DNA of 34,924 nt from an uncultured Oscillospiraceae bacterium (GCA_964549475.1 CAZJXH010000004.1:1-34924), one strand, 5' to 3'; shown: positions 54 through 21,402, numbered from the stretch's first letter. Notes: a model not told the origin generated them from the sequence alone. Made by a program: numbers and translations.

Positions 54-3000
54 ATGGAAGAAGCTGTTTTTATATGGAAAAACTGTACCTTGGTACAATT
101 ACAATGCTTAAAAAGCAAGAGTAGAATAACTACGTTGTATTATATATCTGGCAAGACAGATCTTGCAAATAAAAAAGAGGTGACCTATTTGAAAGGGAGA
201 ATCAACCGTTCTGACGGGATTTGCTTAATCCGGTTCAAATCTCTGACAATCCGTATTCTGGCGTTGTTCATTATAATCGGATTGTGTTTTTCTCCATATC
301 GCGCATTTGTATCCTCAGAAGGCGATATCGCCACACTGATCACAGGGAATGGATATTCCTTTGACTCTGCCAGCGGTATGCTGACTATTTCTACTGACAG
401 CGGAACAGCAAACTGGAGAAGCGACCCCGGCATCGCAAAAACCGATGTGATTACTGTTGTTGTACATAGCGGTGTGCTGAATATATCGGATAATGCGTTT
501 AATGCCTGTACTGCACTGACAGCGGCCACGCTTCCGTCCGGTCTGACATTGATCGGGGAATATTCCTTTTATAACTGCAGCTCTTTACAGACGGTTAACA
601 TACCATACGGTGTGACACGCTTAAAGTATGGCGCATTCCGCAGATGCGGAGCCCTCACAGCAGTTACAGTCCCGAGCAGTGTAAGTAAAATTGACGCTAT
701 GGCATTCTATATGTGTCCAAAACTATTAAGCGCCACGTTCCAGAGGACGGCTGCGCCTGCTTTTGGAGCGAACGTATTCTCGAAATATGCCGGCTTTAAA
801 ATCAACTATCCGTTGGGCGGCGCAGGATACACAAGTCTCGGCTATACCGCCGAGGGGGTCAGTATGGCGCTTGATATTGTCACCGGCAACGGATATACAT
901 TTAATCCGAACACCGATACATTGACTGTATCAAGTGACAGCGGCACGACAAACTGGAAAAGCGACAGCAATTTTAACAAGAGTGTCGTTAAGACAGTGGT
1001 GATTGGAGACGGCGTACAAAACATTCTTGACAGCGCATTTTCTGAGTGTACAGTGTTGTCGTCTGTCACTCTTCCGGCCGGGCTATCCGTAATCAAGGAT
1101 TATGCGTTCAATGGCTGCACTTCTCTAGGAGCGATCACCATACCAAATGGCGTATCCCGTCTCAGATATAGTGCGTTTACTGGCTGTACATCCCTTACAA
1201 CAGTCATCCTCCCCAGCACCGTAGCGACGATTGAGCGCCGCGTATTTTTTGGTTGTTCAAAGCTTATCAATGCCACCTTTATGGGGATAACCGCACCCAC
1301 AGTTGGAAGCTCTGCGTTTGGCAACTGCGCTGAAGATTTTAAAATCTACTATCCGATCAGCGGCACAGGGTATACGGGACTTGGTTATACGGCTGAGGCG
1401 ATTGATGTGACGCTGTCGACCGAAGGCTATTCCTTTGATTCCACAAGCGGCACGCTGACCATTGCAAGCAATGACGGCACAACAAATTGGAGAAATAGCA
1501 GTATTGCAAAAGATGCGGTGAAAACAGGGATCATTCAAAGCGGGGTCACGCTTATTTTGGACAACACTTTTAAAGATTGTATTTCTCTGACTTCCATTTC
1601 AGTTCCAGATGGCGTTACACATATCGGGAAATATGCATTTGACGGGTGTCATTCTTTGACAGGAATCGTCCTGCCCGGCTCCTTGACATCAATCGGAGAC
1701 GAGGCTTTCTTCAACTGTGTCAAGCTGGCGGCGATCTCTATTCCGGACGGTGTCACCACCATTGGGTGCGAGGCGCTGGCGAACACCGGCATAAGCTCAA
1801 TGACTATTCCGAACAGTGTTTTATTAATGGGACAAGGCGCATTTTGTTATTGTTCGAAGCTCACCTCCGTCACATTCGAAGCAGGCTGCCAATTGACCAA
1901 TATTCCGATCATTGCATTTTCTGATTCCGGACTGGCTTCAATTGATATTCCGGACAGCATCACTTCAATTGAATCAAGTGCATTCGACGGATGCGCCTTA
2001 TCGTCTGTTACTATTCCAAGCCAAGTGGCTTCTATTAAAAATAGTGCTTTCAAAAATTGCTCAAAGCTTTATGCGGCATCTTTTGAAGGGATCGCTGCAC
2101 CGATTCTTGGTACGAACGTATTTGACAACTGCCACACAAGCTTTAAAATATACTATTCAGTCGGCGGCACAGGCTATGGAAGCCTTGATTATCCGGCTGT
2201 GACCGACAAGGCCCCTGTTATGGGAGATGGCTATTATTTTGATACGGAAAGCGGTACATTGACGATATCCAGTGACAGCGGAATGGCAAACTGGAGAAGC
2301 AGCACGATAGTAAAAAGCTCCGTGCTTTCAATAATCATTGAAAGCGGAGCGAGTAACATTGCGGATGAAGCTTTTGAAGGATGCGCCTCGCTGAACACGA
2401 TTTTAATTCCCGAGAATGTAACTTCCATAGGAAGCCGTGCTTTTGAAGGATGCTCATCGCTGCTAACCGTCACCATTTCCAATAACGTTGATTCCATTGG
2501 GAGTTACGCATTCAGATATTGTACGTCCCTGGCAACAGTAACGATCCCTGCCAAGGTGATTTCTATCGGGGCTGGTGCATTTTATGGCTGCGGACAGCTC
2601 AACTCCGCCATTTTTAATCCTATTGCAGCTCCGTCTCTTGAAACCGGAGCCTTCAACGGCTGCCACGCTGGCTTTAAAATTTATTATCCCGCTAAGGGGA
2701 CAGGCTACGAAACCCTTGGTTACTCCGCCGAGGCTATTGGTGTATACACCATGGATGTAATCAATGGAACGGGAAGCGGTAAGTATGAGGTGGATGCCCG
2801 AGTGAGCATCAAAGCGGATGCAGCGCCAGATGGCAAGGTCTTTAATCGCTGGATTACTAATAACGGAGGGGCGTTCACTGACGCTGCAAGTGCGGTTACC
2901 ACCTTTACAATGCCTGCTGCAAAAGTAACCGTTACGGCAACATTCCGAGATGAGATGCAGTTTACCATCACCGCAAAAGCCATCAGCGGCGGCACTGTAA

Positions 3001-3551
3001 ATCCGGCCGGAACGGTGAGCGTCGCAGAAGGGCACGATGAAACCTTTGTTATTACGCCAAACACCGGTTATCGCATTGAATCCATCACCGTGGATGGAAT
3101 TAGCCAAGGCGTTGTACCTGCATATATATTTACAAAAGTCACAGCGAATCATGCCATAATGGCAACATTTACAAAAATCGAAAACAATGGCAATGACAAT
3201 GGCAGCGACGATGGAAATGGTAATAATAATGGTAATTTATCCTCTTCTTCTGGGACTTCGCCAGCACCTATTCCGGAGACGAACAGCAATATTTTGTCTC
3301 CTTCCCCTTCTGAGATTTCTCCGGCACCTGTTCCGGAGACGAACAGTAATATTTTGTCTCCTTCCCCTTCTGAGATTTCACCGACACCTGCTTCGGAAGC
3401 GATCAGTAATATTTTATCTCCTGCCATTCCTTCAGACCGTAAAGCCGGGGTCGTTACAACACTGCCATGGATAATCTGCGCGCTGCTTATAGCAGCATCA
3501 GCGGTCGCTGCGACAGTGATACTGATAAAAAGAAGGAAGACACTGCAATAG
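54..3551 (+). CDS. Large cell-surface leucine-rich-repeat protein (BspA-type LRR). It has four ~281-aa modules, a Listeria-Bacteroides repeat domain, a Pro/Ser-rich repeat linker and a C-terminal TM anchor. The true start is probably TTG at 189.
   Basis: The ORF track gives a 1165-aa ORF. By eye, a module (TGNGYxFD..SGT.T.S.DSGT.NW..., runs of AF..C..L..V.IP..V..I, ending ..FKIYYP..GTGY..LGYTAE) recurs four times. After the fourth module comes FNRWITNNGGAFTDAASAVTTFTMPAAKVTVTATF, typical of the Listeria-Bacteroides repeat fold, then a second beta-rich segment. Next is a low-complexity linker of 3 x SPAPIPETNSNILSPSPSEI, then a hydrophobic segment followed by KRRKTLQ. No LPXTG motif is present. 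An AAGAGGTG RBS lies 6 nt before an in-frame TTG at 189 and gives a signal-peptide-like N-terminus (KGRINRSDGICLIRFKSLTIRILALFIIIGLCF). There is no RBS before the ATG at 54. Confidence 0.8.
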   Translation: MEEAVFIWKNCTLVQLQCLKSKSRITTLYYISGKTDLANKKEVTYLKGRINRSDGICLIRFKSLTIRILALFIIIGLCFSPYRAFVSSEGDIATLITGNGYSFDSASGMLTISTDSGTANWRSDPGIAKTDVITVVVHSGVLNISDNAFNACTALTAATLPSGLTLIGEYSFYNCSSLQTVNIPYGVTRLKYGAFRRCGALTAVTVPSSVSKIDAMAFYMCPKLLSATFQRTAAPAFGANVFSKYAGFKINYPLGGAGYTSLGYTAEGVSMALDIVTGNGYTFNPNTDTLTVSSDSGTTNWKSDSNFNKSVVKTVVIGDGVQNILDSAFSECTVLSSVTLPAGLSVIKDYAFNGCTSLGAITIPNGVSRLRYSAFTGCTSLTTVILPSTVATIERRVFFGCSKLINATFMGITAPTVGSSAFGNCAEDFKIYYPISGTGYTGLGYTAEAIDVTLSTEGYSFDSTSGTLTIASNDGTTNWRNSSIAKDAVKTGIIQSGVTLILDNTFKDCISLTSISVPDGVTHIGKYAFDGCHSLTGIVLPGSLTSIGDEAFFNCVKLAAISIPDGVTTIGCEALANTGISSMTIPNSVLLMGQGAFCYCSKLTSVTFEAGCQLTNIPIIAFSDSGLASIDIPDSITSIESSAFDGCALSSVTIPSQVASIKNSAFKNCSKLYAASFEGIAAPILGTNVFDNCHTSFKIYYSVGGTGYGSLDYPAVTDKAPVMGDGYYFDTESGTLTISSDSGMANWRSSTIVKSSVLSIIIESGASNIADEAFEGCASLNTILIPENVTSIGSRAFEGCSSLLTVTISNNVDSIGSYAFRYCTSLATVTIPAKVISIGAGAFYGCGQLNSAIFNPIAAPSLETGAFNGCHAGFKIYYPAKGTGYETLGYSAEAIGVYTMDVINGTGSGKYEVDARVSIKADAAPDGKVFNRWITNNGGAFTDAASAVTTFTMPAAKVTVTATFRDEMQFTITAKAISGGTVNPAGTVSVAEGHDETFVITPNTGYRIESITVDGISQGVVPAYIFTKVTANHAIMATFTKIENNGNDNGSDDGNGNNNGNLSSSSGTSPAPIPETNSNILSPSPSEISPAPVPETNSNILSPSPSEISPTPASEAISNILSPAIPSDRKAGVVTTLPWIICALLIAASAVAATVILIKRRKTLQ
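3241..3420 (+). repeat. About three copies of a 60-bp tandem DNA repeat inside the LRR protein gene, encoding the Pro/Ser-rich stalk.
   Basis: Coordinates 3301-3360 and 3361-3420 are near-identical at the nucleotide level (cttccccttctgagatttc.ccg.cacctg.t.cgga..cga.cagtaatatttt.tctc). Coordinates 3241-3300 form a more diverged copy ending in the same ...ttccggagacgaacagcaatattttgtctc. Confidence 0.8.
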
Positions 3552-9021: not shown

Positions 9022-11550
9022 TCAGTTTTTAACAATTTTATAGAATATTTTCTTTGCGATTTCAGCTGTCATGATGTATAAAGCCACAATCAGTCCGATG
9101 ATTCCAAGAATCCATGCGGGCAGAGGTTCGAATCCTAGAATTCCTGCAAGTGGTGTGTATGGAATCATCAGCGTGACTGCTACGATCAGCAGCGTGGTCA
9201 TCGCTAAATATTTTCCGGGTCTGCTTTTGAAAAAGGGTTTCCGTGAGCGGATGACCAGAACGATCAGTGCCGCGGAACAAACCGACTCGACAAACCAGCC
9301 CGTTCTGAATTGGATATCGGATGAATGGATCAGCAGCATCAGCGCCGCGAAGGTCATATAATCAAAAATAGAACTGATCAAACCGAAGACAAGCATGAAT
9401 TTTCGGATGAAACGGATATCCCATCTTCGCGGTTTCATGATCATTTCACTGTCAACCGAGTCCGAAGCAATGGTCATCTCCGGAAAATCCGTCAATAAGT
9501 TAGTCAGCAGGATCTGTTTGGGAAGCAGCGGAAGGAACGGAAGAAACAGGGATGCACCCGCCATACTGAACATATTTCCGAAATTGGCACTGGTCGCCAT
9601 GAATACATATTTCAATGTGTTTGCAAACGTTGTTCTCCCGGCAGTCACGCCGCTGATCAGGACTTTTAGATCTTTTTCCAGTAAAACAATGTCCGCTGCC
9701 TCTTTTGCAACATCCGCCGCACTATCCACAGAAATACTGACATCGGCGGCATGAAGCGCCGATGCGTCGTTGATCCCGTCTCCCATATAGCCTACGACAA
9801 ATCCTGCTTTCCGAAGCGCGATAATGATCCGCTCCTTCTGGTTGGGTTCCACTTCGGCAAAAACGGTAATCTGTCTCACCTTTTTGATCAAGGCGGCATC
9901 GCTGGTCTTGTTCAGTTCTGCTCCGGTCAGGATTTTCTCCTCGGATAAGCCGAATTGTGAAATAATATGAGCAGCAATCAGTTTGTTGTCTCCCGTGATA
10001 ATTTTCAATGAAATTCCCAATCGCTTCAGTTTCTTGATTGTTTCGACGATATCCGGTTTTAAAGGGTCATAAAGTGTGATAAATCCTAAAAATGTCATGT
10101 CGGTCTCATGGTCCTTTTCTATCCGTTCATCCTTGTCGAGAATCCGATAGGAAACGCCAAGTGTGCGATATCCTTTTTTGCTGAAGCCCTCGAATTGCTG
10201 CTGTATCTCATCCCGGACAGCAGCGATATCGACAAGTTCGCCGTTCATGTCCTCCGCATGAGTACACACATCCAGAACATTGTGCAGTGCGCCTTTTGTC
10301 ACCATGATTTTGGAATTGGCCTGTTTGTCCGATACCAGGATGCTTAATCTTTTTCGGATGAAATCGTATGGCTGTTCACCCAATTTTTGATAGTTGCTCA
10401 TATCCAACTGTTTGTGGTCGCGGATCGCCTGGTCGATCGGGTTAATGAACCCGGTCTCGAACGAAGCGTTGATATAGGCATACAGGAATGCTTTTTCGCT
10501 TATCCCTCCATCGATGCCATGGGTGGATTCCAGTTTGACCACTCCATCCGTCAGCGTGCCGGTTTTGTCCGAGCAGAAAACATCCATGCTTCCAAAATTT
10601 TCAATCGCAGAAAGGCGTTTGACGATCACTTTGGCTTTTGCCATCGTCTTGGCGCCGTTTGCAAGGTTTATGCTGATAATCGCCGGAAGCAGCTGCGGGG
10701 TCAGCCCCACAGCAAGAGCGAGTGAGAATAGAAAGGAGTCGAGTGCCGGCCTTTTTAAAAAAACATTGATGGCAAAAATGGCAAAAACCAGAATTAATGT
10801 GATTTCCATCAATAGGTATCCAAATGATTTCACGCCTCTTTCAAATTCGGTTTCAGGCGGTTTTTTCTTCAGGCTTTCAGAAATCTTCCCGAATTCCGTG
10901 TTTTTCCCTGTGTGAAGGACAAGGGCTTTCGCGCTGCCGCTGATGATATGTGTGCCCATCCATACGGAATTTTTCCGCTCACCGATAACGGTTTCTCCGG
11001 ATAGGACCCCGGACTCTTTCTCAACCGGAAAGGTCTCTCCTGTCAGAGTCGCTTCGTCCACAAAAAGTGCATTCGACTCGATGATCAGCCCATCCCCCGG
11101 AATAATATCCCCTGCCTTCAGCAGCACCACATCGCCAGGTATCACTTCCGATACTCCGACGATAAGCGGCACGCCTTCCCGAAGCACCGTCGCCTTGATT
11201 TGAACCACCGCCAATAATTTATCCACAGCGGAATTCGCCCCGTATTCCTGCCAGAATCCAAGCAGGCCGCTGGCCAGCACAATCGCAAGAATAATGAACG
11301 CATCCAGTGTATCGCCCAGATAAAAAGAAAGCCCGATGGCAAAAAACAGGATCAGGATGATCGGACTTTTGAATTGTGCAAGTAAAAGTAAAAAAGTATT
11401 GTTTTTCTTGCTCTTTTTAATAGAATTCACTCCATATTCCAATCGTCTTTTTTTTGCTTCACTATCGGATATTCCATTCACCGAACTTTTTGTCTGTTGG
11501 AACGCGGATTCAACCGTCTCCGCCCAGAAAAATTCGTTTCTCTCTTCCAT
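9022..11550 (-). CDS. mgtA: Magnesium-translocating P-type ATPase (MgtA family, P-type IIIB). The likely start is the ATG at 11548-11550 rather than the ORF-track start at 11682.
   Basis: CSDKTGTLT phosphorylation motif, GDGINDASALHAADVSISVDSAADVAKEAADIVLLEKDL…TFANTLKYV…FLPFLPLLP…ILLTNLLTD, and a C-terminal …MKPRRW… block all match E. coli/Salmonella MgtA segment by segment. A GAAGGGA RBS precedes the internal ATG (MEERNEFFW…). Confidence 0.88.
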   Translation of the reverse strand: MEERNEFFWAETVESAFQQTKSSVNGISDSEAKKRRLEYGVNSIKKSKKNNTFLLLLAQFKSPIILILFFAIGLSFYLGDTLDAFIILAIVLASGLLGFWQEYGANSAVDKLLAVVQIKATVLREGVPLIVGVSEVIPGDVVLLKAGDIIPGDGLIIESNALFVDEATLTGETFPVEKESGVLSGETVIGERKNSVWMGTHIISGSAKALVLHTGKNTEFGKISESLKKKPPETEFERGVKSFGYLLMEITLILVFAIFAINVFLKRPALDSFLFSLALAVGLTPQLLPAIISINLANGAKTMAKAKVIVKRLSAIENFGSMDVFCSDKTGTLTDGVVKLESTHGIDGGISEKAFLYAYINASFETGFINPIDQAIRDHKQLDMSNYQKLGEQPYDFIRKRLSILVSDKQANSKIMVTKGALHNVLDVCTHAEDMNGELVDIAAVRDEIQQQFEGFSKKGYRTLGVSYRILDKDERIEKDHETDMTFLGFITLYDPLKPDIVETIKKLKRLGISLKIITGDNKLIAAHIISQFGLSEEKILTGAELNKTSDAALIKKVRQITVFAEVEPNQKERIIIALRKAGFVVGYMGDGINDASALHAADVSISVDSAADVAKEAADIVLLEKDLKVLISGVTAGRTTFANTLKYVFMATSANFGNMFSMAGASLFLPFLPLLPKQILLTNLLTDFPEMTIASDSVDSEMIMKPRRWDIRFIRKFMLVFGLISSIFDYMTFAALMLLIHSSDIQFRTGWFVESVCSAALIVLVIRSRKPFFKSRPGKYLAMTTLLIVAVTLMIPYTPLAGILGFEPLPAWILGIIGLIVALYIMTAEIAKKIFYKIVKN

Positions 11551-11606
11551 TCTATCCCGTCCCTTCTTTGATTCTGATTTATTGCATTTTGCACCATCAA
11601 TTCCCT

Positions 11607-12026
11607 CTATTGCTTTATAATCATATGCGCGCCAACTGCAATAACTAATAAAAATGCAACGATGCGGTGTGTTTTCAGCCATACTGCTTTTAAATTTTTA
11701 TTGATAAAAGCCCCATACATTCCTAACCCCCCGAGAGTCATCATAAGAATCGCAGATATGATTCCGGTGATTCGGATATTGTCTGTCGAAAAAGCGATGG
11801 CGAAATGGGTCAATAAAGATGCGATGGCGATAATCCCGGCTGTTTTATGATATTTAACAATGACTTTCATGACCTTCCGATAAAAATCTGCAAATTGCTT
11901 TTTATCTTTCCCCAATTTCATAATAAATCTTTTATGAATTAATTTTATAAAATAATTCAAAATGGCTATCCCGAAACTGATTGCTGTTATCGTCCCCAGA
12001 AGTTCAATTACATCTTTTGCTGTCAT
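11607..12026 (-). CDS. Small polytopic membrane protein (139 aa, ~4 TM), uncharacterised, immediately upstream of mgtA.
   Basis: Hydrophobic helices are visible (ITAISFGIAILNYFI, IIAIASLLTHFAIAF, ISAILMMTLGGLGMYGAFI, IVAFLLVIAVGAHMII). It lies 57 nt from the mgtA start and 36 nt from the DUF1003 stop. Confidence 0.5.
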   Translation of the reverse strand: MTAKDVIELLGTITAISFGIAILNYFIKLIHKRFIMKLGKDKKQFADFYRKVMKVIVKYHKTAGIIAIASLLTHFAIAFSTDNIRITGIISAILMMTLGGLGMYGAFINKNLKAVWLKTHRIVAFLLVIAVGAHMIIKQ

Positions 12027-12989: not shown

Positions 12990-13280
12990 ATGACACACAA
13001 AGAATATGTTTTGATTTTCAAGGCGCTGGCGGATGAGACCCGTCTAAAGATCGTGGAGACGCTGTCCGGCGGAGAGTGCTGCGCCTGTAAAATACTGGAG
13101 CAGTTTTCCATCACCCAGCCAACCTTGTCCTATCACATGAAAATCCTGTGCGACAGCGGTCTTGTCGACGGCAGACGCGACGGAGCCTGGATCCGATATA
13201 CCATCAGCGCGCCAAAGCTCGAAGCCGTCCGTAAATTTCTGGATCGGATCGATCTTTCAGAGAAGAAAGAGGAAATTTAA
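12990..13280 (+). CDS. arsR: ArsR/SmtB-family metalloregulator with a Cys-rich alpha3 site (GECCAC).
   Basis: A 96-aa winged-HTH protein (…ADETRLKIVETLSGGECCACKILEQFSITQPTLSYHMKIL…). Three clustered Cys sit where As(III)/organoarsenical-sensing ArsRs carry their thiolate site. Its stop overlaps the arsP ATG (TAATG at 13278-13282). Confidence 0.85.
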   Translation: MTHKEYVLIFKALADETRLKIVETLSGGECCACKILEQFSITQPTLSYHMKILCDSGLVDGRRDGAWIRYTISAPKLEAVRKFLDRIDLSEKKEEI

Positions 13281-14284
13281 TGTTTATTTTTGAATGGCTG
13301 AATAATCAATTACTAAAAATGGATTGGCTGAATGCGCTGATCCGGCTTTTGGTTGAAAATGTGTTTGGTCTGAATGTCAATGAACAGCTGGGCGGAAGCG
13401 TCCATTTTTTCCTATATGATACGGTCAAAATTTTTATTCTTTTATCTTTTTTAATTTTTATCATTTCCTATATCCAGAGTTTCTTCCCGCCTGAACGCAC
13501 GAGGAAGATCCTTGGCCGGTTCAGCGGCCTTGCCGCTAATATCCTCGGCGCGCTTCTTGGAACCATCACGCCTTTTTGTTCCTGCTCCTCGATTCCTATT
13601 TTTATTGGATTTACCAATGCAGGACTGCCCCTGGGCGTCACCTTTTCTTTCCTGATCTCCTCCCCGCTTGTGGATCTGGCTTCGGTTCTTCTCCTTGCCA
13701 GTATTTTCAACTGGAAAATTGCCATCGCGTATGTGGTTGTCGGGCTCATTCTGGCCGTTATTGGCGGAACGGTCATCGGGAAGGCGAAACTGGAGGATTA
13801 TGTGGAGCCTTTTATTTTCAAAAACAAGGTCCTTGATGTGGTACAGGCGAAACTGTCAAGGCGTGATCGGATCAACTATTCCAAAGAACAGGTTTTTTCT
13901 GTCATCCGCAAAGTCTGGCTTTATGTGCTGATCGGCGTTGGAATCGGCGCATTGATCCATAACTGGATACCGGAAAATGTCATTGCAGCCGTTCTCGGAC
14001 AGGACAAATGGTATTCTGTGATCATTGCAACCATTGTCGGCGTACCGATGTATGCGGATATCTTTGGAACCCTTCCTATTGCACAATCATTGGTTGAGAA
14101 AGGAGTCGGGATCGGAACGGCGCTTTCTTTCATGATGGCAGTGACGGCGCTTTCTCTTCCATCCATCATTATGCTCAAGAAAGTTGTGAAAACGAAACTA
14201 TTAGGGATTTTTGTCGGGATTGTAACAGTCGGCATCATCATCATCGGATATGTTTTCAATGCATTCGGGTGGTTATTGTTATAA
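13280..14284 (+). CDS. arsP: ArsP-family permease (PF03773, organoarsenical/methylarsenite efflux permease type).
   Basis: A 334-aa polytopic membrane protein with the diagnostic TPFCSCSSIP motif (GTITPFCSCSSIPIFIGF) in which the two Cys of ArsP are essential. It is arranged as a two-halves permease. Confidence 0.8.
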   Translation: MFIFEWLNNQLLKMDWLNALIRLLVENVFGLNVNEQLGGSVHFFLYDTVKIFILLSFLIFIISYIQSFFPPERTRKILGRFSGLAANILGALLGTITPFCSCSSIPIFIGFTNAGLPLGVTFSFLISSPLVDLASVLLLASIFNWKIAIAYVVVGLILAVIGGTVIGKAKLEDYVEPFIFKNKVLDVVQAKLSRRDRINYSKEQVFSVIRKVWLYVLIGVGIGALIHNWIPENVIAAVLGQDKWYSVIIATIVGVPMYADIFGTLPIAQSLVEKGVGIGTALSFMMAVTALSLPSIIMLKKVVKTKLLGIFVGIVTVGIIIIGYVFNAFGWLLL

Positions 14285-14354
14285 TAATTTCACCGGATCC
14301 AATTATTTATATGAAAAAGCAGAAAACAACGATAGAAATCAGGAGGATCTTATC

Positions 14355-14597
14355 ATGGTCATTAAAATTTTAGGCTCAGGGTGCAAAAACTGCATCACAC
14401 TCACCGAAAACACCAAAGCGGCTCTTTCCATACTCGGCGTCCATGCAGAAATCGCCAAAGTGACCGACTTTGCAGACATCGCTGCATTCGGTGTCATGTC
14501 CACTCCCGCGCTAGTCATTGATGAAAAAGTCGTTTCCTTCGGAAAAGTGCTCAAACCAAAAGAAATTGTAAAAATTCTTGAAACGATGTCCGTATAA
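14355..14597 (+). CDS. Small thioredoxin-fold protein (TIGR00412 'redox-active disulfide protein 2' type), CxxC.
   Basis: MVIKILGSGCKNCITLTENTKAAL…VMSTPALVIDEKVVSFGKV (80 aa). An AGGAGG RBS lies 8 nt before the ATG at 14355. The longer ORF-track start at 14250 lacks an RBS. Confidence 0.75.
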   Translation: MVIKILGSGCKNCITLTENTKAALSILGVHAEIAKVTDFADIAAFGVMSTPALVIDEKVVSFGKVLKPKEIVKILETMSV

Positions 14598-14733
14598 AGA
14601 TTAATCCCTCATTATTTGTACGGAACTCCAAGCCAGGGCTGGTAAACAACAAATTATTAAAGCGCCATAAGCAAGAAAATTGAAACAGAAAACAATCAAA
14701 CAGATTTTTAATTTTTACAAGGCTAAAGATCGA

Positions 14734-14762
14734 TTGAAGGATGAATTTTCCTGTGATATTAT
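14734..14762 (+). promoter_or_regulatory. Candidate sigma-A promoter for the CoADR-rhodanese operon, upstream of the MITE insertion.
   Basis: TTGAAG (14734-14739), a 17-bp spacer, and TATTAT (14757-14762). It is followed by an imperfect palindrome TATGAG-n14-CTCATA (14764-14790). Confidence 0.4.
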
Positions 14763-14803
14763 ATATGAGTGCAAATGCATACGCTCATAAACAGGATTGG
14801 AGG

Positions 14804-14945
14804 CAGGGCAATCGCTTCCGAAAAGAAACGGATTAGTAGCAGATGGAATGCAACATGGGGACGGTTCTTGTGTTGCATAAACGAAATAAAATGAAATATA
14901 AGAACCGTCCCCATGCTCCATTTCTTTTCGGAAGCAATTGCCCTG
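14804..14945. mobile_element. Complete MITE-like non-autonomous element of about 142 bp. It has 25-bp terminal inverted repeats, a nested internal hairpin and 9-bp target-site duplications. It is inserted in the 5' UTR of the CoADR-rhodanese gene.
   Basis: Left TIR cagggcaatcgcttccgaaaagaaa (14804-14828) and right TIR tttcttttcggaagcaattgccctg (14921-14945) are reverse complements, 24/25. Perfect direct repeats GATTGGAGG flank them at 14795-14803 and 14946-14954. The inner hairpin is tggggacggttctt / aagaaccgtcccca. There is no ORF inside. The right TSD supplies the GGAGG RBS for the ATG at 14962. Confidence 0.75.
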
Positions 14946-14961
14946 GATTGGAGGACGAAAT

Positions 14962-16632
14962 ATGCGAATCATTGTAATTGGCGCAGTCGCTGCTGGCACC
15001 TCTGCCGCGGCAAAAGCACGAAGAAATACAGAAAACGCAGATATCATCATTTATGAGAAAGACCGCTTTATTTCTTATTCTGGTTGCGGCATGCCCTATT
15101 ATATTGGTGGAGTAGTGGAGCGTTCCGATGATCTGACACCACGGGACCCTGCATTCTTCAAGAGTAAATACAACGTGGATGTCTTTATTTTACATGAGGT
15201 ACTTTCGATTCATCCGGATAAGAAAATCTTGGAAATAAAAAATCTCTCCACTGGCCAAGTATTCACGGATACCTATGACACCCTTATTCTTGCCACCGGT
15301 GCAAAAGCTGTTGTTCCACCAATTAAAGGGGTTAACGGTTCGAACGTTTTTATGCTGCGCAATATCAACGATATGAACCGGATTCATTCTTTCATTGAAT
15401 CGAAGAAACCACAATCTGCGGTGATCATCGGCACAGGTTTCATCGGCCTCGAGGTTTGTGAAAACTTGAAAAGACTCGGGATTGATATAACTATGATTGA
15501 AAAGTTGCCGCAAGTCACACCGGGACTTGATGATGATATGGCCGGTTATGTGGAAGAACATCTTGAAAAAAATGGGATTTCTGTTCTGACTTCTGTTTCT
15601 GCAGAAAAAATCACCGCGAACGGAGTGATATTATCGGACGGTTCCTCGGTCGATGCGGAAATGATCATTGTATCCGTAGGAATTCGACCCGAAACGGAGC
15701 TTGCTAAGCAAACAGGAATTGAACTTGGCATATCCGGTGCCATCAAGGTTGACAAGAAGATGCGAACAAACCGGAAAGATATTTTTGCCTGCGGAGATTG
15801 CATCGAACAATTTCATGTTGTCACAGGGAAACCTGTTTATCGTCCATTGGGGTCTACTGCGAACAAAACGGGTCGAATCGCAGGAGATTGTGCAACGAAC
15901 GGCAGTCTTGAATTTCGAGGAATACTTGGTACTGGAATTTTTAAAGTTTTCGATTTGGCAGTTGCTCAAACCGGACTGTCCGAACGCGAAGCGCTGGAAC
16001 AAGGATATGACGTTGCTGTCTGCCATAATATCAAACCGGACAAGCCGGAATATATGGGAGGAAGAGAAATGGTCATCAAAGGCATTGCCGACAAAGCGAC
16101 CGGGAGACTTCTGGGAGCCCAGATCGTCGGGTTTGAGGGAGTCGATAAACGGATTGATGTTTTCGTAACAGCTATTACCTTTAAGGCAAACGTCGAAGAC
16201 CTGTTCCATCTTGATCTGGCTTATGCACCGCCTTTTTCCACTACGAAAGATCCGGTCATGTATACCGGCATGATCCTGGACAATGCCATCCACCGATCCA
16301 GGCCATTGATAACGGCGCAAGCGCTGGACGCCCTGATACAATCCGGTGAAAAGGTTGAATTGATTGATGCAAGAGTCTCTTCCCAGTATGGGAAAGGACA
16401 TATCGGCGCAGCGGATTCGATTCCCCATACAGCCCTGAGAGAAGCCGCAGCGAACCTGGATCCGAATGTCTTTACCGTGACATACTGCAACAAAGGAGTC
16501 ACCGGGAACGCTGCGCAGAATATTCTGATCAATCGGGGCTTTAAAAAAGTATACAACCTTTCGGGTGGACACGAACAATTTAAAAAATTCATGATTAAAA
16601 ACAGCAAGAAACCAGGTGGAAATAATAGTTGA
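14962..16632 (+). CDS. CoA-disulfide reductase / NADH-dependent persulfide reductase fused to a C-terminal rhodanese domain (CoADR-RHD).
   Basis: The N-terminus MRIIVIGAVAAGTSAA (FAD GxGxxG) and redox Cys in SYSGCGMPYYIGG are as in CoADR/Nox. A second NAD(P) fold (AVIIGTGFIGLE) is present. C-terminal ~100 aa form a rhodanese domain with the active-site loop TYCNKGVTGN. The ORF-track start (TTG 14938) lies inside the repeat. The ATG at 14962 has a GGAGG RBS. Confidence 0.85.
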   Translation: MRIIVIGAVAAGTSAAAKARRNTENADIIIYEKDRFISYSGCGMPYYIGGVVERSDDLTPRDPAFFKSKYNVDVFILHEVLSIHPDKKILEIKNLSTGQVFTDTYDTLILATGAKAVVPPIKGVNGSNVFMLRNINDMNRIHSFIESKKPQSAVIIGTGFIGLEVCENLKRLGIDITMIEKLPQVTPGLDDDMAGYVEEHLEKNGISVLTSVSAEKITANGVILSDGSSVDAEMIIVSVGIRPETELAKQTGIELGISGAIKVDKKMRTNRKDIFACGDCIEQFHVVTGKPVYRPLGSTANKTGRIAGDCATNGSLEFRGILGTGIFKVFDLAVAQTGLSEREALEQGYDVAVCHNIKPDKPEYMGGREMVIKGIADKATGRLLGAQIVGFEGVDKRIDVFVTAITFKANVEDLFHLDLAYAPPFSTTKDPVMYTGMILDNAIHRSRPLITAQALDALIQSGEKVELIDARVSSQYGKGHIGAADSIPHTALREAAANLDPNVFTVTYCNKGVTGNAAQNILINRGFKKVYNLSGGHEQFKKFMIKNSKKPGGNNS

Positions 16633-16936
16633 TATCTTTAAATCTCTGGCAGAAGAAAGCCGGCTTCCCATTCTGTCTCTTCTGGTACAAGAAGAAATGT
16701 GCGTATGTGAAATCGAAGATTGCTTAAAAATGACACAGTCCAATGTTTTCCGCCATTTGGCAGCATTAAAGCAAAGTAGAATCCTTGACAGCTGCAAGAA
16801 AGCACAATGGGTTTATTACAAAATCGGCGAGACCTTTATTAAAGAGAATTCCCTTCTGTGGGAGTACTTGGTGGATCATTTTCAAAAAGATCCGATCTAT
16901 CGGACCGAAATCAGAGCCCGTCGAACATGCGAGTAA
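16616..16936 (+). CDS. ArsR/SmtB-family regulator with a CVC metal(loid)/thiol-sensing motif. It is translationally coupled to the CoADR-RHD gene, overlapping by 17 nt.
   Basis: GTG start at 16616. The protein reads …AEESRLPILSLLVQEEMCVCEIEDCLKMTQSNVFRHLAALKQSRIL…, comparable to the ELCVCDLC site of As(III)/Cd-type ArsR. Confidence 0.75.
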   Translation: MEIIVDIFKSLAEESRLPILSLLVQEEMCVCEIEDCLKMTQSNVFRHLAALKQSRILDSCKKAQWVYYKIGETFIKENSLLWEYLVDHFQKDPIYRTEIRARRTCE

Positions 16937-16989
16937 TAACATACGGATAATCACCCGCAAGCATCTAAAGAAACGCAAGGTTTCCAACA

Positions 16990-17026
16990 GAGAAAGCCCT
17001 TAAGAAATAACGGCTTTCTCCATTTG
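16990..17026 (+). terminator. Hairpin after the second arsR, a possible weak intrinsic terminator.
   Basis: gagaaagcc (16990-16998), a 13-nt loop, then ggctttctc (17012-17020), followed by ccattt. The U-tract is poor. Confidence 0.35.
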
Positions 17027-17146
17027 AAACAATGAAAATATTAACAAAAATATGTATTGTATATTTAAAATTCCGGATGTATAATGAGTCATTTCTGCGA
17101 AGAGGAACGAAACAAATAGTTCAGAATTGTGATGAGGATAATACAG

Positions 17147-19975
17147 ATGGAAGAAAAGTTAATTGATTTGAATAGGAAAGACGTCACGGGGATCTATAAG
17201 CTAACCTCCAGTGATGTCTGCGAAGCCATGGGTACACGGCTGGAGGGGCTGACCGCCTCTGAAGTGGAGGACAACCACAAGATTTACGGCAAGAATGTCA
17301 TCAGCGAAAAAAAGGGGACTCCTGTCATTCTGATTTTTTTATCGAATTTTATCAGTATGATGGCGATCCTTTTGTGGGTCGGCGGTGCGATTGCGATTAT
17401 TGCAGACATGCCCCAGCTTGGAATTGCCATATGGCTGGTCAATGTGATCAACGGAGTATTCAGTTTCTGGCAGGAATTCCGCGCCGGAAAAGCGACCGAG
17501 GCGTTGAAGAGAATGCTTCCGTCCTATGCCAGAGTCACCAGAGACAATACCGAAATCCAAGTTTTGGCGGAGGATCTTGTGCCCGGAGATGTTGTCCTTC
17601 TTCAAGAAGGGGACAAGATTTCTGCCGATGCCCGGTTGATAGAAAGCAGCGATTTGCAAGTAGACCAGTCCACGCTGACAGGCGAATCCAATCCGGTCCG
17701 CAAAACCCATGATCCTGTTTTACGGGACAATCTGTCCCGATCTGAGACACCGAATCTTATTTTCGCCGGAACGAGCATTTCCAGCGGCACAGCCAAAGCT
17801 GTTATTATTACAACCGGAATGGATACCGAATTTGGCAAAATCGCCCATTTGACACAAGCGATGAAGGTCGACCCCAGTCCGCTCGAAAAAGAACTGGATG
17901 TGCTGACCAAGCAGGTTTCCATCATCGCATTGGCGGTCGGGGTATTCTTTTTCATCGCTTCTGTCTTTTTTGTGAAAGAACCCATCGCAAAATCCTTCAT
18001 CTTTGCGCTTGGCATGGTGGTTGCTTTTATCCCGGAATGCTTGCTGCCGACCGTAACCCTGTCCCTGGCCATGGCGGTTCAGCGCATGTCCAAGGAGCAC
18101 GCTCTGGTTAAACGATTGTCCGCTGTTGAGACACTGGGATGCACTTCCGTTATCTGTTCAGACAAGACTGGAACCCTGACGCAGAACGAAATGACGGTAT
18201 GCAGCCTGTGGCTGCCAAAAGAAGAACTGGAAGTCACCGGTCTTGGCTATGCTCCTGTGGGGAATGTTTTATCCGACGGCAAAGAAGTCAACATCCAGGG
18301 GCATGAGGATCTAAAAATGCTTCTCACTGCCGCCAGTCTTTGCAGCAATGCCCGATTGGTTCCTCCGGGAGAAGAGTCGGATCGTTATACGGTTCTGGGA
18401 GACCCGACAGAAGCCTGTCTCGGGGTAGTTGCCCAGAAAGCGGGATTGGATGTCCAGTTGCAGTCCAAATTGACCCCCCGCCTGAGAGAGCTCCCTTTTG
18501 ATTCCAGACGCAAACGAATGACCACCATCCACCAGTTGGAGTCCCCGATTGATGGAAGCCCCCGTATCGCTTATATCAAAGGCGCACCGAAAGAGGTATT
18601 GGAATTATGTACCGGAATCTACACCGGGGGTAGACGAGAAGAGATAACCGCACAGCAGCGGGATACGATCATGGAGGCCAATGACCGGTATGCCCGCAAT
18701 GGCTTGAGGGTATTGGCGATTTCCTACCGGCTTCTCTCCCGTGCAAATAATCTGCCGACTTCCCTGAGCGCTTATACCCCTGAATTGATTGAACAGGACA
18801 TGGTTTTTGTCGGATTGGTTGTCATGGCGGATCCTCCGAGGCCGGAAGTGGCCGCGGCAGTTGAATTATGCCGCAAAGCCAGCATCCGGATTATAATGAT
18901 CACCGGGGATTATGGTTTGACGGCTGAGAGTATCGCAAGAAGAATCGGTATTATCCGGACTGAAAATGCACGAATCATTTCCGGTATGGATCTGGGGAAA
19001 ATGCCTGATGAGGAATTAAAGGAAGCACTAAAGGAAGAAGTGATTTTTGCCAGAGTCGCACCGGAGCAAAAATATCGTGTGGTTTGCGCTCTTCAGGAAA
19101 TGGGGCATATTGTGGCGGTAACGGGGGATGGAGTAAATGATTCTCCCGCACTAAAAAAGGCAGATATCGGCGTAGCGATGGGAATCTCCGGTACGGATGT
19201 CGCAAAAGAAGCCGCCGACATGATTCTGACAGATGATAATTTCGCCTCGATCGTGAAAGCTATCGAAGAAGGCCGTGCGGTTTACAGCAATATCCGAAAA
19301 TTTATTCTTTACATTTTAAACAGCAATATGTCCGAAGGGGTTCCTTCCGCAGCATTCCTCTTCTCAAGAGGAGGTATTCCGCTTCCACTGACTGTCATGC
19401 AGATCCTGGCGGTTGACCTTGGTACGGATATGATGCCTGCCCTGGGGCTTGGAACAGAGCTCCCTGAAAAAGGGGTGATGGATCTGCCGCCCCGCTCGAA
19501 GAAAGACCGCTTATTGAACAAGCGTATTGTGGTCAAAGCGTTTTTCTGGTATGGAATGATCGCTTCTGTCATCTGCATGGGCGCCTATTTCTTTGTAAAT
19601 ATGCTCAATGGCTGGCCGGGCGTTCCATTGGCCAGTTCCGGCATTATTTACAGGCAGGCTACAGCGATGACACTTGCTTCCATCGTATTCTGCCAGGTCG
19701 GTGCTGTGATGAACTGCCGCACCGAAAAACAATCGGTTTTTAAAACAGGTTTGTTCAGTAATAAAAAAGTCCTGTTTGGTATCGTTTTTGAAATACTACT
19801 GTTAAGTGCTATCATCTATGTCCCATTTCTTCAGGATATTTTCAACACTGCGCCGATCGGCATCAAAGAATGGGCATTCCTTTTCGCGCTGCCTCTTCCG
19901 ATTGTTCTCATTGAAGAAATAAGGAAGGCGATTTCGCGCAAATATGGTAAAATGAAAGATGCAGGAGGTAACTAA
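17147..19975 (+). CDS. Cation-transporting P-type ATPase of type IIA (SERCA/Ca2+-ATPase-like), with PECL in place of PEGL in M4.
   Basis: ICSDKTGTLTQNEMTV, TGD…KGAPE, MITGD, VAVTGDGVNDSPALKKADIGVAMG, 10 predicted TM. There is no N-terminal HMA domain and no CPC motif, so it is not a P1B heavy-metal pump. A GAGGA RBS precedes the ATG at 17147. Upstream GTG/ATG starts lack an RBS. Confidence 0.85.
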   Translation: MEEKLIDLNRKDVTGIYKLTSSDVCEAMGTRLEGLTASEVEDNHKIYGKNVISEKKGTPVILIFLSNFISMMAILLWVGGAIAIIADMPQLGIAIWLVNVINGVFSFWQEFRAGKATEALKRMLPSYARVTRDNTEIQVLAEDLVPGDVVLLQEGDKISADARLIESSDLQVDQSTLTGESNPVRKTHDPVLRDNLSRSETPNLIFAGTSISSGTAKAVIITTGMDTEFGKIAHLTQAMKVDPSPLEKELDVLTKQVSIIALAVGVFFFIASVFFVKEPIAKSFIFALGMVVAFIPECLLPTVTLSLAMAVQRMSKEHALVKRLSAVETLGCTSVICSDKTGTLTQNEMTVCSLWLPKEELEVTGLGYAPVGNVLSDGKEVNIQGHEDLKMLLTAASLCSNARLVPPGEESDRYTVLGDPTEACLGVVAQKAGLDVQLQSKLTPRLRELPFDSRRKRMTTIHQLESPIDGSPRIAYIKGAPKEVLELCTGIYTGGRREEITAQQRDTIMEANDRYARNGLRVLAISYRLLSRANNLPTSLSAYTPELIEQDMVFVGLVVMADPPRPEVAAAVELCRKASIRIIMITGDYGLTAESIARRIGIIRTENARIISGMDLGKMPDEELKEALKEEVIFARVAPEQKYRVVCALQEMGHIVAVTGDGVNDSPALKKADIGVAMGISGTDVAKEAADMILTDDNFASIVKAIEEGRAVYSNIRKFILYILNSNMSEGVPSAAFLFSRGGIPLPLTVMQILAVDLGTDMMPALGLGTELPEKGVMDLPPRSKKDRLLNKRIVVKAFFWYGMIASVICMGAYFFVNMLNGWPGVPLASSGIIYRQATAMTLASIVFCQVGAVMNCRTEKQSVFKTGLFSNKKVLFGIVFEILLLSAIIYVPFLQDIFNTAPIGIKEWAFLFALPLPIVLIEEIRKAISRKYGKMKDAGGN

Positions 19976-19976
19976 T

Positions 19977-20627
19977 ATGAAAGTAATTATTGTCGGTTGT
20001 GGTAAATTTGGTTCGGGGTTAGCGATCAATCTCATCAGCAAAGGGCACAAGGTGACAGTCATCGACAACAACCCCGAGGCATTTGAACTGCTGGGTACGG
20101 ATTTTAAAGGAGAAACCATTCTGGGTGTCGGATTTGACCGGGATATTCTCGAAAAAGCTAAAATCCAATCGGTCGATGCCATTGTAGCATGCAGCAAGAG
20201 CGATGAGGTCAATGCACTTGTCGGTCGGCTCTCCCAGAATGTTTATAGAGTTCCTCATGTCATCTCCAGACTGTATGATCCAAGGCAGGCAGAAATTTAC
20301 CGGTCTCTTGGCATTCAGACCATCTCTACAACAACATGGGGCGTCATGCGTGAGACAGAGATGCTCAGTTACAACCAGCTGGACAGTGTGTTTACATTCG
20401 GAAACAGCAGTGTTGAAATGGTTCGGATCGAAACCCCTGCCCTTCTGGTCGGCAAAACGGTGAATGAACTGACCGCTCTTGGCGAGATTCATGTCGTTGC
20501 AATCAGTCGTGAGAATAAAACTTTTCTTCCGACCATGGGAACAACTTTACAGAAGCATGATATTGTGTATATTTCGGTTTTGGCCACTTCTTCAAAACGG
20601 CTGAAATCCTTACTTGGTTTGATATAA
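19977..20627 (+). CDS. TrkA/KtrA-type RCK protein (TrkA-N NAD-binding plus TrkA-C).
   Basis: MKVIIVGCGKFGSGLAINLISKGHKVTVID is a Rossmann GxGxxG motif, and a C-terminal TrkA-C-like segment follows. An AGGAGG RBS is present. It starts 2 nt after the ATPase stop. Confidence 0.8.
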   Translation: MKVIIVGCGKFGSGLAINLISKGHKVTVIDNNPEAFELLGTDFKGETILGVGFDRDILEKAKIQSVDAIVACSKSDEVNALVGRLSQNVYRVPHVISRLYDPRQAEIYRSLGIQTISTTTWGVMRETEMLSYNQLDSVFTFGNSSVEMVRIETPALLVGKTVNELTALGEIHVVAISRENKTFLPTMGTTLQKHDIVYISVLATSSKRLKSLLGLI

Positions 20628-20643
20628 AACGGAGGGAAATAAT

Positions 20644-21312
20644 ATGAAAGTAATTATAATAGGCGGGGGTCAGGTTGGTTCCTATATTGCAGGCTTACTC
20701 TTGAACAATAACTGTTCTGTTAAAGTGATTGAGAACCGGACAAATGTTTTGAACAAATTGAAGAAAGAATTGCCATCTGATACGGTCGTTTTCGGAAGCG
20801 GAACCAATCCAACGGTTCTTGAAGCATGCGGAATCGCGGATGCGGATGTGGTTGTCGCGGTCACTGGCGCGGATGAGACGAACTTGGTCGCCTCAACAAT
20901 TGCAAAATTTGAATTCAGCGCTCCCCGTGTCATTGCCCGGATTAACAACCCAAAAAACACGTGGATGTTCGATGCCAGCATGGGAGTGGATGTGGCATTG
21001 AACCAGGCGGACCTGATGGCTCATCTTGTAGTGGAAGAAATGACATTTAAAACCATGTTGACCCTGATGAAGATCAATCGAAGCAATTACTCCATCATCC
21101 AGGTAAAAGTCGACGCCCGGTCCGCTGTTGTGAACATGACCGTAAAAGAGCTGGATATCCCGAAAAAAGCAACCTTTATCGCTATTTATCGTGGAAACGA
21201 AGTGATCATTCCTCATGGTGATGCACAGATTCTGCAGGGAGACGAGATTCTGGCGTTCGCCGATTTAGGGGCCCAGGAAAAAATAAACACGCTGTTTGGC
21301 CCGTTAAAATAG
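20644..21312 (+). CDS. Second TrkA/KtrA-type RCK protein.
   Basis: MKVIIIGGGQVGSYIAGLLLNNNCSVKVIE…, same architecture as the first. A GGAGGG RBS is present. Confidence 0.8.
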   Translation: MKVIIIGGGQVGSYIAGLLLNNNCSVKVIENRTNVLNKLKKELPSDTVVFGSGTNPTVLEACGIADADVVVAVTGADETNLVASTIAKFEFSAPRVIARINNPKNTWMFDASMGVDVALNQADLMAHLVVEEMTFKTMLTLMKINRSNYSIIQVKVDARSAVVNMTVKELDIPKKATFIAIYRGNEVIIPHGDAQILQGDEILAFADLGAQEKINTLFGPLK

Positions 21313-21362
21313 CATCAAGTTCTATTCCATCGGTTGTAACAGGACATCAAGACATAGCAGTA

Positions 21363-21394
21363 AAAGCGGTAACATTTTATGAACCGCTTTTTGT
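21363..21394 (+). terminator. Intrinsic terminator after the trkA pair.
   Basis: aaaagcggt-aacattttatga-accgcttttt then gtt: a 7-bp GC-containing stem with a T-run. Confidence 0.7.
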
Positions 21395-21402
21395 TATACC
21401 CC

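Follow-up and report, generated by a model that had tools for sequence, protein, structure and literature searches.

RCK domains gate K+ channels, Trk/Ktr translocators, and CPA2 antiporters, and P-type ATPases are regulated by cis tails or small membrane peptides. The adjacency of a P-type pump and RCK genes is already on record as Trk1 of Streptococcus mutans, and no paper was found on its mechanism. In PMC7082836, which cites Binepal et al. (2016), Trk1 (trkB-trk-pacL) is described as a putative K+ system that is separate from Trk2 (trkA-trkH). The literature consulted treats the Trk1 locus as a Trk-type system or as a cyclic di-AMP (c-di-AMP) receptor. Here, we describe a pump-RCK-RCK module in a 34,924-nucleotide stretch of DNA from an uncultured Oscillospiraceae bacterium (GCA_964549475.1, CAZJXH010000004.1:1-34924), which was analysed at its full length and is referred to below as the window. 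Its three genes encode a type-II (P2) P-type ATPase and two RCK proteins, RCK1 and RCK2. Pump, RCK1, and RCK2 form a conserved, dedicated, co-inherited, and translationally coupled unit. Our best reading, which we consider fairly probable, is that the ATPase would be a P2 pump that imports K+ and is controlled in trans by a heteromer of RCK proteins. The three genes are located as follows:

17147-19975, + strand: P2-type cation ATPase, 942 amino acids (947 amino acids from an alternative start at 17132)
19977-20627, + strand: RCK1, 216 amino acids, TrkA_N and TrkA_C (Pfam, NCBIfam), ribosome-binding site AGGAGG
20644-21312, + strand: RCK2, 222 amino acids, TrkA_N and TrkA_C (Pfam, NCBIfam), ribosome-binding site GGAGGG

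The ATPase open reading frame (ORF) contains the Pfam domains Cation_ATPase_N, E1-E2_ATPase, Cation_ATPase, Hydrolase, and Cation_ATPase_C, which together make up the full P2 architecture. It carries the CSDKTGTLTQNEMTV motif, along with the DKTGT phosphorylation motif, TGES, and GDGxND. The type-II assignment given in an earlier, sequence-only reading of the window is thus borne out, as is its description of tandem TrkA-N/TrkA-C proteins, each with its own ribosome-binding site, after the pump. The ATPase TAA stop ends at 19975 and the RCK1 ATG lies at 19977, within AGGAGGTAACTAATATG; the close spacing noted in that reading therefore stands, with a spacer of 1 nucleotide rather than the 2 it had stated. 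Stop and start codons overlap between module genes in three further loci (L004, L001, and L170). RCK1 and RCK2 share ~27% identity, and the NCBIfam model of the two-RCK TrkA (NF007039) is matched in its N-terminal half by RCK1 and in its C-terminal half by RCK2. Their PDB sequence matches are TrkA, the split pair TM1088A/B, and KtrC. The likeness to TrkAH and KtrAB lies in these TrkA_N plus TrkA_C proteins, which correspond to the two halves of a two-RCK TrkA. Unlike those systems, the membrane protein next to them is a P-type ATPase, and the defining SKT membrane subunit, TrkH or KtrB, was found neither in the window nor among the families surveyed at module loci (below). The sequence-only reading had likewise reported that the window holds no K+ transporter membrane subunit, and a Pfam search detected no TrkH or KtrB among the large ORFs of the 35 kb.

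The order ATPase-RCK1-RCK2 was the same in all 13 RCK-linked genome loci examined, and their flanks are unrelated. These loci, several of them from metagenome-assembled genomes (MAGs), are:

Clostridium thermosuccinogenes, Anaerocolumna jejuensis, a Clostridia MAG, two Erysipelotrichaceae MAGs, Bacillus marasmi, Streptococcus mutans, Enterococcus xiangfangensis, Schleiferilactobacillus shenzhenensis, two Collinsella, Olsenella, a Cryosericum MAG

The module spans Bacillota, Coriobacteriia, and a Cryosericum MAG. RCK1 orthologues (39-73% identity) are located directly 3′ of the ATPase in every RCK-linked locus examined. No RCK gene was found within 6 kb at any of the 68 loci of other prokaryotic P2 ATPases, which share 37-43% identity with the window ATPase. 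The association was also approached from the RCK side, using the best 80 metagenomic RCK1-like loci (49-78% identity), of which those with enough flanking sequence were testable. The 3′ end of this type of ATPase lies directly upstream of the RCK1-like gene in 75 of 76 testable loci, and RCK2 lies directly downstream of RCK1 in all 74 testable ones. Non-conserved synteny, which the sequence-only reading had named as part of its own refutation, is not what was observed: the order is kept across phyla in both the forward and the reverse direction. A survey of the flanks of 93 module loci (727 kb) yielded 32 ORFs with multiple transmembrane (TM) segments; TrkH and KtrB are absent from the 25 best-represented Pfam families of these ORFs, with seven single-member families lying beyond those 25. 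An upstream ArsR regulator was considered as a further conserved component and rejected, as the flanks differ at every module locus.

The module of the window is, judged by orthologous genes in the same order, the same module as S. mutans Trk1 (pacL-trk-trkB). Of the two S. mutans RCK genes behind pacL, the first, presumably SMU_1562 (“trk”), is orthologous to RCK1 and the second, presumably SMU_1561 (“trkB”), to RCK2. In the S. mutans locus L085, genes of the LacI, GH77, and phosphorylase families, which would fit malR, malQ, and glgP, precede a pump of the same clade and two RCK genes, with no TrkH. The RCK proteins (217 and 219 amino acids, TrkA_N plus TrkA_C) are 43 and 39% identical to RCK1 and RCK2, respectively. 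The pacL of this strain (P0177, L085:6001-8523) encodes 840 amino acids, with ~90 residues of the N domain missing (~415-504 in window numbering), which looks like a strain-specific in-frame deletion and maybe a defective allele. In S. mutans, trk and pacL change together in RNA-seq (PMC9513430), and “Trk1 of S. mutans” is listed among c-di-AMP binders in a study that used SMU_1562 as the S. mutans sequence (PMC12453120). Full-text literature searches found no S. mutans Trk1 paper in which the P-type ATPase is considered as membrane partner or its transport is tested, no paper on a P-type ATPase with RCK partners, and no characterisation of pumps from this clade.

The RCK pair is missing beside other members of the clade that carry identical ion-site motifs, namely in S. 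ratti, S. equinus, S. macacae, S. dentasini, an abundant streptococcal cluster (P0165), Limosilactobacillus, Companilactobacillus, and Lacticaseibacillus. S. mutans, which has the RCK genes, nests among the RCK-less streptococci in the tree, implying that the pair was lost more than once. We compared 45 RCK-linked with 9 RCK-less pumps at the 297 alignment columns whose conservation among the RCK-linked pumps reaches 97% or more. Just five of these columns (R185, E348, R403, P537, and Y543) were changed in at least 60% of the RCK-less pumps. R185 is in the A domain, four residues after TGES; E348 is in the P domain, nine residues after the phosphorylated Asp; and R403, P537, and Y543 are in the N domain. 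When the nine most divergent RCK-linked pumps were used as a mock group, no such column appeared. The replacements at the five columns differ between lineages, which suggests relaxation rather than a single ancestral change. A seven-residue signature was derived on 19 sequences, and predictions from it were written down before testing. It correctly predicted the RCK pair in Enterococcus and Schleiferilactobacillus and its absence in S. macacae (3/3 blind), while S. dentasini, with no RCK pair, showed an intermediate signature. E348, R403, and Y543 are kept without exception in 32 independent metagenomic RCK-linked pumps. This co-variation is the best available, though indirect, evidence that the RCK proteins may act on the pump itself.

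The main rival explanation is that the RCK proteins gate a KtrB or TrkH translocator encoded elsewhere, with the ATPase merely co-expressed, for example to extrude the Na+ that enters through Na+-coupled Ktr uptake. In its favour, the Pfam, NCBIfam, and PDB matches of RCK1 and RCK2 show nothing beyond TrkA/KtrA-like proteins of the usual kind, there is precedent for RCK genes unlinked from those of their membrane subunits, and one locus has the RCK pair without a pump. We nevertheless regard this explanation as unlikely. RCK1-type genes are almost never found apart from the ATPase, no TrkH or KtrB was seen among the 25 best-represented membrane-ORF families flanking the 93 module loci, and cytoplasmic residues of the pump relax precisely in the lineages that have lost the RCK genes, which would be unexpected if the RCK proteins acted on another protein. 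The S. mutans transporter inventory in PMC7082836, moreover, has a single TrkH, with its own adjacent TrkA. The proposal of the sequence-only reading that the RCK pair has the P-type ATPase as its partner, and not a Trk/Ktr pore, is supported by synteny, by the lack of TrkH/KtrB nearby, by residue co-variation, and by the blind predictions.

The same reading had assigned the pump to the Ca2+/Mn2+ ATPases (SERCA/PMCA/LMCA1), an assignment that our results do not support. The signature around DKTGT that it took as a mark of such pumps is generic for P2 ATPases. The best PDB sequence match is the Na,K-ATPase alpha3 subunit (540 bits), followed by H,K-ATPases (~519 bits), SPCA1 (513 bits), LMCA1 (510 bits), and SERCA (479 bits). 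An AF2 model of the pump, of moderate quality (predicted local distance difference test, pLDDT, of 74) and used for fold search only, retrieved Na,K-ATPase E1 states first in Foldseek, and the top matches were all P2 pumps. The ATPase passes none of the NCBIfam equivalog cut-offs:

PMR1-type (TIGR01522): 637 bits, cut-off 798.3, missed; the highest score, full length
IIC Na,K/H,K (TIGR01106): 633.8 bits, cut-off 946.1, missed
SERCA (TIGR01116): 585 bits, cut-off 703.4, missed
IID: 470 bits, cut-off 645, missed
PMCA: 413 bits, cut-off 507, missed

The ion-site residues are E297 in M4 (PEGLL(P)TVT), Y722, S726, N727, and E730 in M5, D757 and D761 in M6 (DLGTD), and Q850 in M8. In an alignment of 120 homologues (72-100% identity), all of these residues are invariant (120/120). 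A phmmer alignment matches E297, S726, N727, E730, D757, D761, and Q850 to E327, S775, N776, E779, D804, D808, and Q923 of the pig Na,K-ATPase, and the residues of Na,K-ATPase cation sites I and II are all present. At the position of the third Na+ site Asp (pig D926), the homologues have A, M, or V (ATPase position 853). The M7-M8 loop, which binds the beta subunit in the Na,K-ATPase, is ~33 residues shorter than in that enzyme, and no beta- or FXYD-subunit-like gene is present in the three-gene operon. The ligands of the Ca2+ pumps (PEGLP in M4, and Asn...Asp in M6, SERCA N796/D800) are replaced by PEGLL and by an Asp at the Asn position in 120/120 sequences, and M8 has Gln where SERCA has Glu. 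A Ca-type M6 Asn (PEGLP or PEGLA ... N..D) occurs in 63 of the 68 other prokaryotic P2 pumps, and the clade of this ATPase is therefore distinct from them. PEGLL and DLGTD are found together in only three of the 68, two of which are cyanobacterial. DLGTD also occurs in distant P2 pumps (~41% identity) of Cyanobium and Aphanothece (L018 and L020), which have PEGLL as well, and of Patescibacteria (L017). No RCK genes are located near these three pumps, which may be part of a wider bacterial group with P2C-like sites. The closest named relatives of the window ATPase by identity are from Clostridia, and its close homologues number in the thousands.

Compared with the alpha subunits of the Na,K- and H,K-ATPases (P2C), the window ATPase thus shares the best sequence and fold matches in the PDB and the motifs M4 PEGLL.TVT, M5 S-N-..-E, M6 D...D (DLGTD), and M8 Q. 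It differs from them in its ~33% identity, its score below the TIGR01106 cut-off, the change of the site-III Asp to A, M, or V, its short M7-M8 loop, the lack of a beta or FXYD gene, its bacterial origin, and its RCK partners. The ATPase belongs to an uncharacterised bacterial clade. Because sites I and II are Na,K/H,K-like and the third-Na+-site Asp and the beta-binding loop are missing, it most likely moves monovalent cations at two sites, and not Ca2+ or Mn2+. We would guess that it uses ATP to take up K+ and exchanges it for Na+ or H+. A 2023 review regards the function of prokaryotic P2C-like pumps as open and discusses only archaeal ones, as uncharacterised (PMC10654040).

An indication of the ion comes from the flanks of some loci. 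Genes of a KdpD/KdpE-like two-component system directly precede the module and share its strand in Collinsella, Bacillus marasmi, and ten metagenome loci:

L009:3349-5683; L007:3534-5782; L151, L152, L154, L157, L159, L162, L163, L164, L166, L167

KdpDE is the classic system by which K+ limitation is sensed to control the Kdp pump. The kinase has the architecture DUF4118-HisKA-HATPase, and its best NCBIfam match is the C-terminal half of KdpD (238-265 bits, below cut-off); the OmpR-type regulator has KdpE as its best NCBIfam match, also below cut-off. No kdpABC was seen in the flanks read around these loci. The KdpE-like regulator of B. marasmi (L007:5124-5782) was matched by tblastn in two separate parts, and its ORF stops prematurely (164 amino acids), which could be due to a frameshift or a pseudogene.

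A Ca2+/Mn2+ pump of the P2A group (LMCA1/PMR1/SERCA type), with RCK proteins that sense a divalent cation or a nucleotide and with an altered specificity due to the M4 motif PECL, is in our view improbable. The full-length PMR1-type match is the highest NCBIfam score, the alignments to SPCA1 and LMCA1 run from end to end and take in M7-M10, and some RCK domains do bind Ca2+, as that of MthK does. Against this stand the missed Ca-pump cut-offs (637 < 798, 585 < 703, and 413 < 507), the M6 Asp and M8 Gln in place of the Ca-pump Asn, present in 63/68 other P2 pumps, and the SERCA Glu, and the KdpDE-like context, which points to K+. The PECL motif is likewise of no help to this explanation, being a singleton. 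It results from a single codon:

18038-18040, + strand: Cys298 codon TGC, in the M4 motif IPECLLP, a G-to-T change from the family codon GGC (PEGLL)

Position 298 is Gly in 119 of the 120 homologues and Cys in the window protein only, and the family motif is IPEGLLPTVTLS. The 90% cluster of the window ATPase has three members, of which both others have Gly298. One near-identical protein (P0001, from a 149-kb Joint Genome Institute contig) differs from that of the window at two positions only, V270I and G298C. PECL thus results from a one-base substitution private to this assembly, or from an error. It was rejected as a family trait, and the view of the sequence-only reading that it marks a variant type of ATPase, significant at the ion site, falls with it. 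Andersen and colleagues reportedly found in 1992 that substitutions of SERCA Gly310, the equivalent of Gly298, block the E1P-to-E2P step. If real, G298C may leave the window's own copy of the pump impaired; otherwise, it may be a sequencing error.

As for the ligand of the RCK proteins, the orthologue alignments show an invariant GxGxxG, an acidic residue at position 30 (E/D30), and R32 in RCK2, with RCK1 being less strict. The c-di-AMP signature of RCK_C domains, (I/L)(I/L)xxDxRx5N(I/L)(I/L) (as in PMC10117811), was found in its strict or relaxed form in 0/12 RCK1 and 0/12 RCK2 orthologues, including those of S. mutans. Since this signature is missing and RCK2 has GxGxxG, the acidic residue 30, and R32, adenine or nicotinamide nucleotides would be the safest guess for the ligand. 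The signature also matters for the suggestion that the RCK proteins are mainly signalling adaptors, such as c-di-AMP receptors that address transcription factors, with co-regulation accounting for their linkage to the pump. A parallel exists in S. mutans, where CabPA binds both c-di-AMP and VicR, and where a role of CabPA/CabPB in K+ transport has not been demonstrated (PMC5575661). VicR is not universal, however, whereas the pump-RCK-RCK order is kept from Coriobacteriia to Clostridia; the co-variation sits in the pump, and the canonical c-di-AMP motif is absent. We therefore consider this explanation very improbable. Chance adjacency or a recent gene relocation without functional meaning is refuted for practical purposes by an order conserved in ~90 loci with unrelated flanks and seen at 0/68 loci of other P2 ATPases.

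A K+-importing pump under RCK control could work as follows. RCK1 and RCK2 would form a TrkA-like heteromeric assembly that binds adenine nucleotides, and perhaps c-di-AMP, and that may dock in trans on the cytoplasmic A, P, and N domains of the pump. Ligand-driven changes of the ring would then bias the E1/E2 cycle, so that the RCK proteins would serve as the trans counterpart of the cis autoinhibitory domains of other P-type ATPases. The pump itself would import K+ in exchange for Na+ or H+ through two sites, with no third Na+ site. Taken further, the module could represent a new class of bacterial K+ transporter: a beta-independent P2 ATPase with Na,K/H,K-like sites and a heteromeric RCK ring of its own, which would gate it in trans in response to ATP/ADP/NAD(H) and possibly c-di-AMP. 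In some lineages, the module would be under KdpDE-like control. We advance this broader proposal tentatively, as our doubts about it slightly outweigh our confidence.

Several observations weigh against a K+-importing, RCK-regulated pump. In B. subtilis, the RCK genes ktrC and ktrD are unlinked from those of the membrane subunits. At one locus (L103, 4019-7330), the RCK pair has no ATPase upstream; four small ORFs (109-148 amino acids) with no Pfam match come before it on the same strand, and no TrkH does. The RCK pair is also missing beside many Lactobacillales pumps of the same clade; the pump must therefore work without it, and the pair is accessory. The co-variation test includes only 9 RCK-less sequences and few independent losses. 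The third-Na+-site Asp is missing and no P2C model cut-off is reached, and specificity is therefore not readable from homology. Neither RCK protein shows the c-di-AMP signature described above. Lastly, K+ uptake in S. mutans is reported to rely mainly on Trk2, and not on Trk1 (PMC7082836).

Among other K+ systems, KdpFABC with KdpDE resembles the module in ATP-driven, P-type K+ uptake, as predicted for the window pump, and in the KdpD/KdpE-like system found 5′ of the module in some lineages. KdpB, however, belongs to the P1A ATPases and acts together with the channel-like KdpA, whereas the module has a single 10-TM-type P2 pump and no KdpA, KdpC, or KdpF; the module-linked kinase also lacks the N-terminal half of KdpD. 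The CPA2 antiporters KhtTU, CpaA, and KefC provide a precedent for RCK control of transporters that are not channels, but they are secondary antiporters, unlike a primary P-type pump. No RCK-regulated primary P-type pump turned up in the full-text literature searches.

The module of the window is bordered by the following elements:

16980-17030, + strand: stable hairpin, a likely terminator 3′ of an ArsR-family gene (16616-16936)
17057-17085, + strand: candidate promoter, TTGTAT, 17 nucleotides, TATAAT, read by eye (weak evidence)
21354-21397, + strand: intrinsic-terminator-like hairpin followed by UUUUUGUU (U-tract), closing the three-gene unit

The RNA fold of 16975-17030 has a free energy of -17.5 kcal/mol (z = -4.5 against shuffles) and a weak T-tract, and the hairpin is likely a terminator that insulates the module from upstream transcription. 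The fold of 21350-21400 has -14.5 kcal/mol (z = -4.15), with 0 of 200 shuffles as stable. A scan for consensus promoters and terminators picked up neither the candidate promoter nor either hairpin; it did not report the promoter because the -35 element matches only 3/6 consensus bases (the -10 element is perfect), and it missed the 3′ hairpin because the loop is too long. An Rfam scan at gathering thresholds of the window and 10 module loci gave nothing relevant and no ydaO/c-di-AMP riboswitch. In an Erysipelotrichaceae MAG (L002:6930-8001), ~1 kb without a called gene or an Rfam match separates a tRNA from the ATPase start.

Upstream of the module, at 12990-16936 (+ strand), is a sulfur/persulfide-type cluster comprising ArsR, an ArsP-type permease, an MTH895/ArsE thioredoxin-like protein, a CoA-disulfide-reductase-rhodanese fusion, and a BigR-like ArsR. 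In S. equinus, too, the RCK-less pump lies 3′ of a CsoR-like, rhodanese, and CoA-disulfide-reductase-rhodanese cluster (L088:1209-3882), which may be a coincidence. The window also encodes a second P-type ATPase (9022-11682, - strand), which scores 777 bits with TIGR01524 (cut-off 611) and is clearly an Mg2+ pump of the MgtA type, and a second P-type ATPase adjoins the module in an Enterococcus locus (L169). A BspA-type leucine-rich-repeat surface protein of 1165 amino acids, with LRR_5 in five stretches and an InlB B-repeat-like domain, is encoded at 54-3551 (+ strand).

If the broader proposal of a new transporter class is true, the module would provide the first known case of a P-type ATPase under the control of RCK domains, and the “Trk1” of S. 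mutans would be reassigned from a Trk system to a P-type pump system. A primary pump under the control of a soluble RCK assembly would join the fields of RCK domains and P-type ATPases, and would offer a tractable bacterial relative with Na,K-ATPase-type cation sites and no beta subunit. It would also add a further K+ (or Na+/K+) system to Gram-positive bacteria, including gut Coriobacteriia, Clostridia, enterococci, and the caries pathogen S. mutans.

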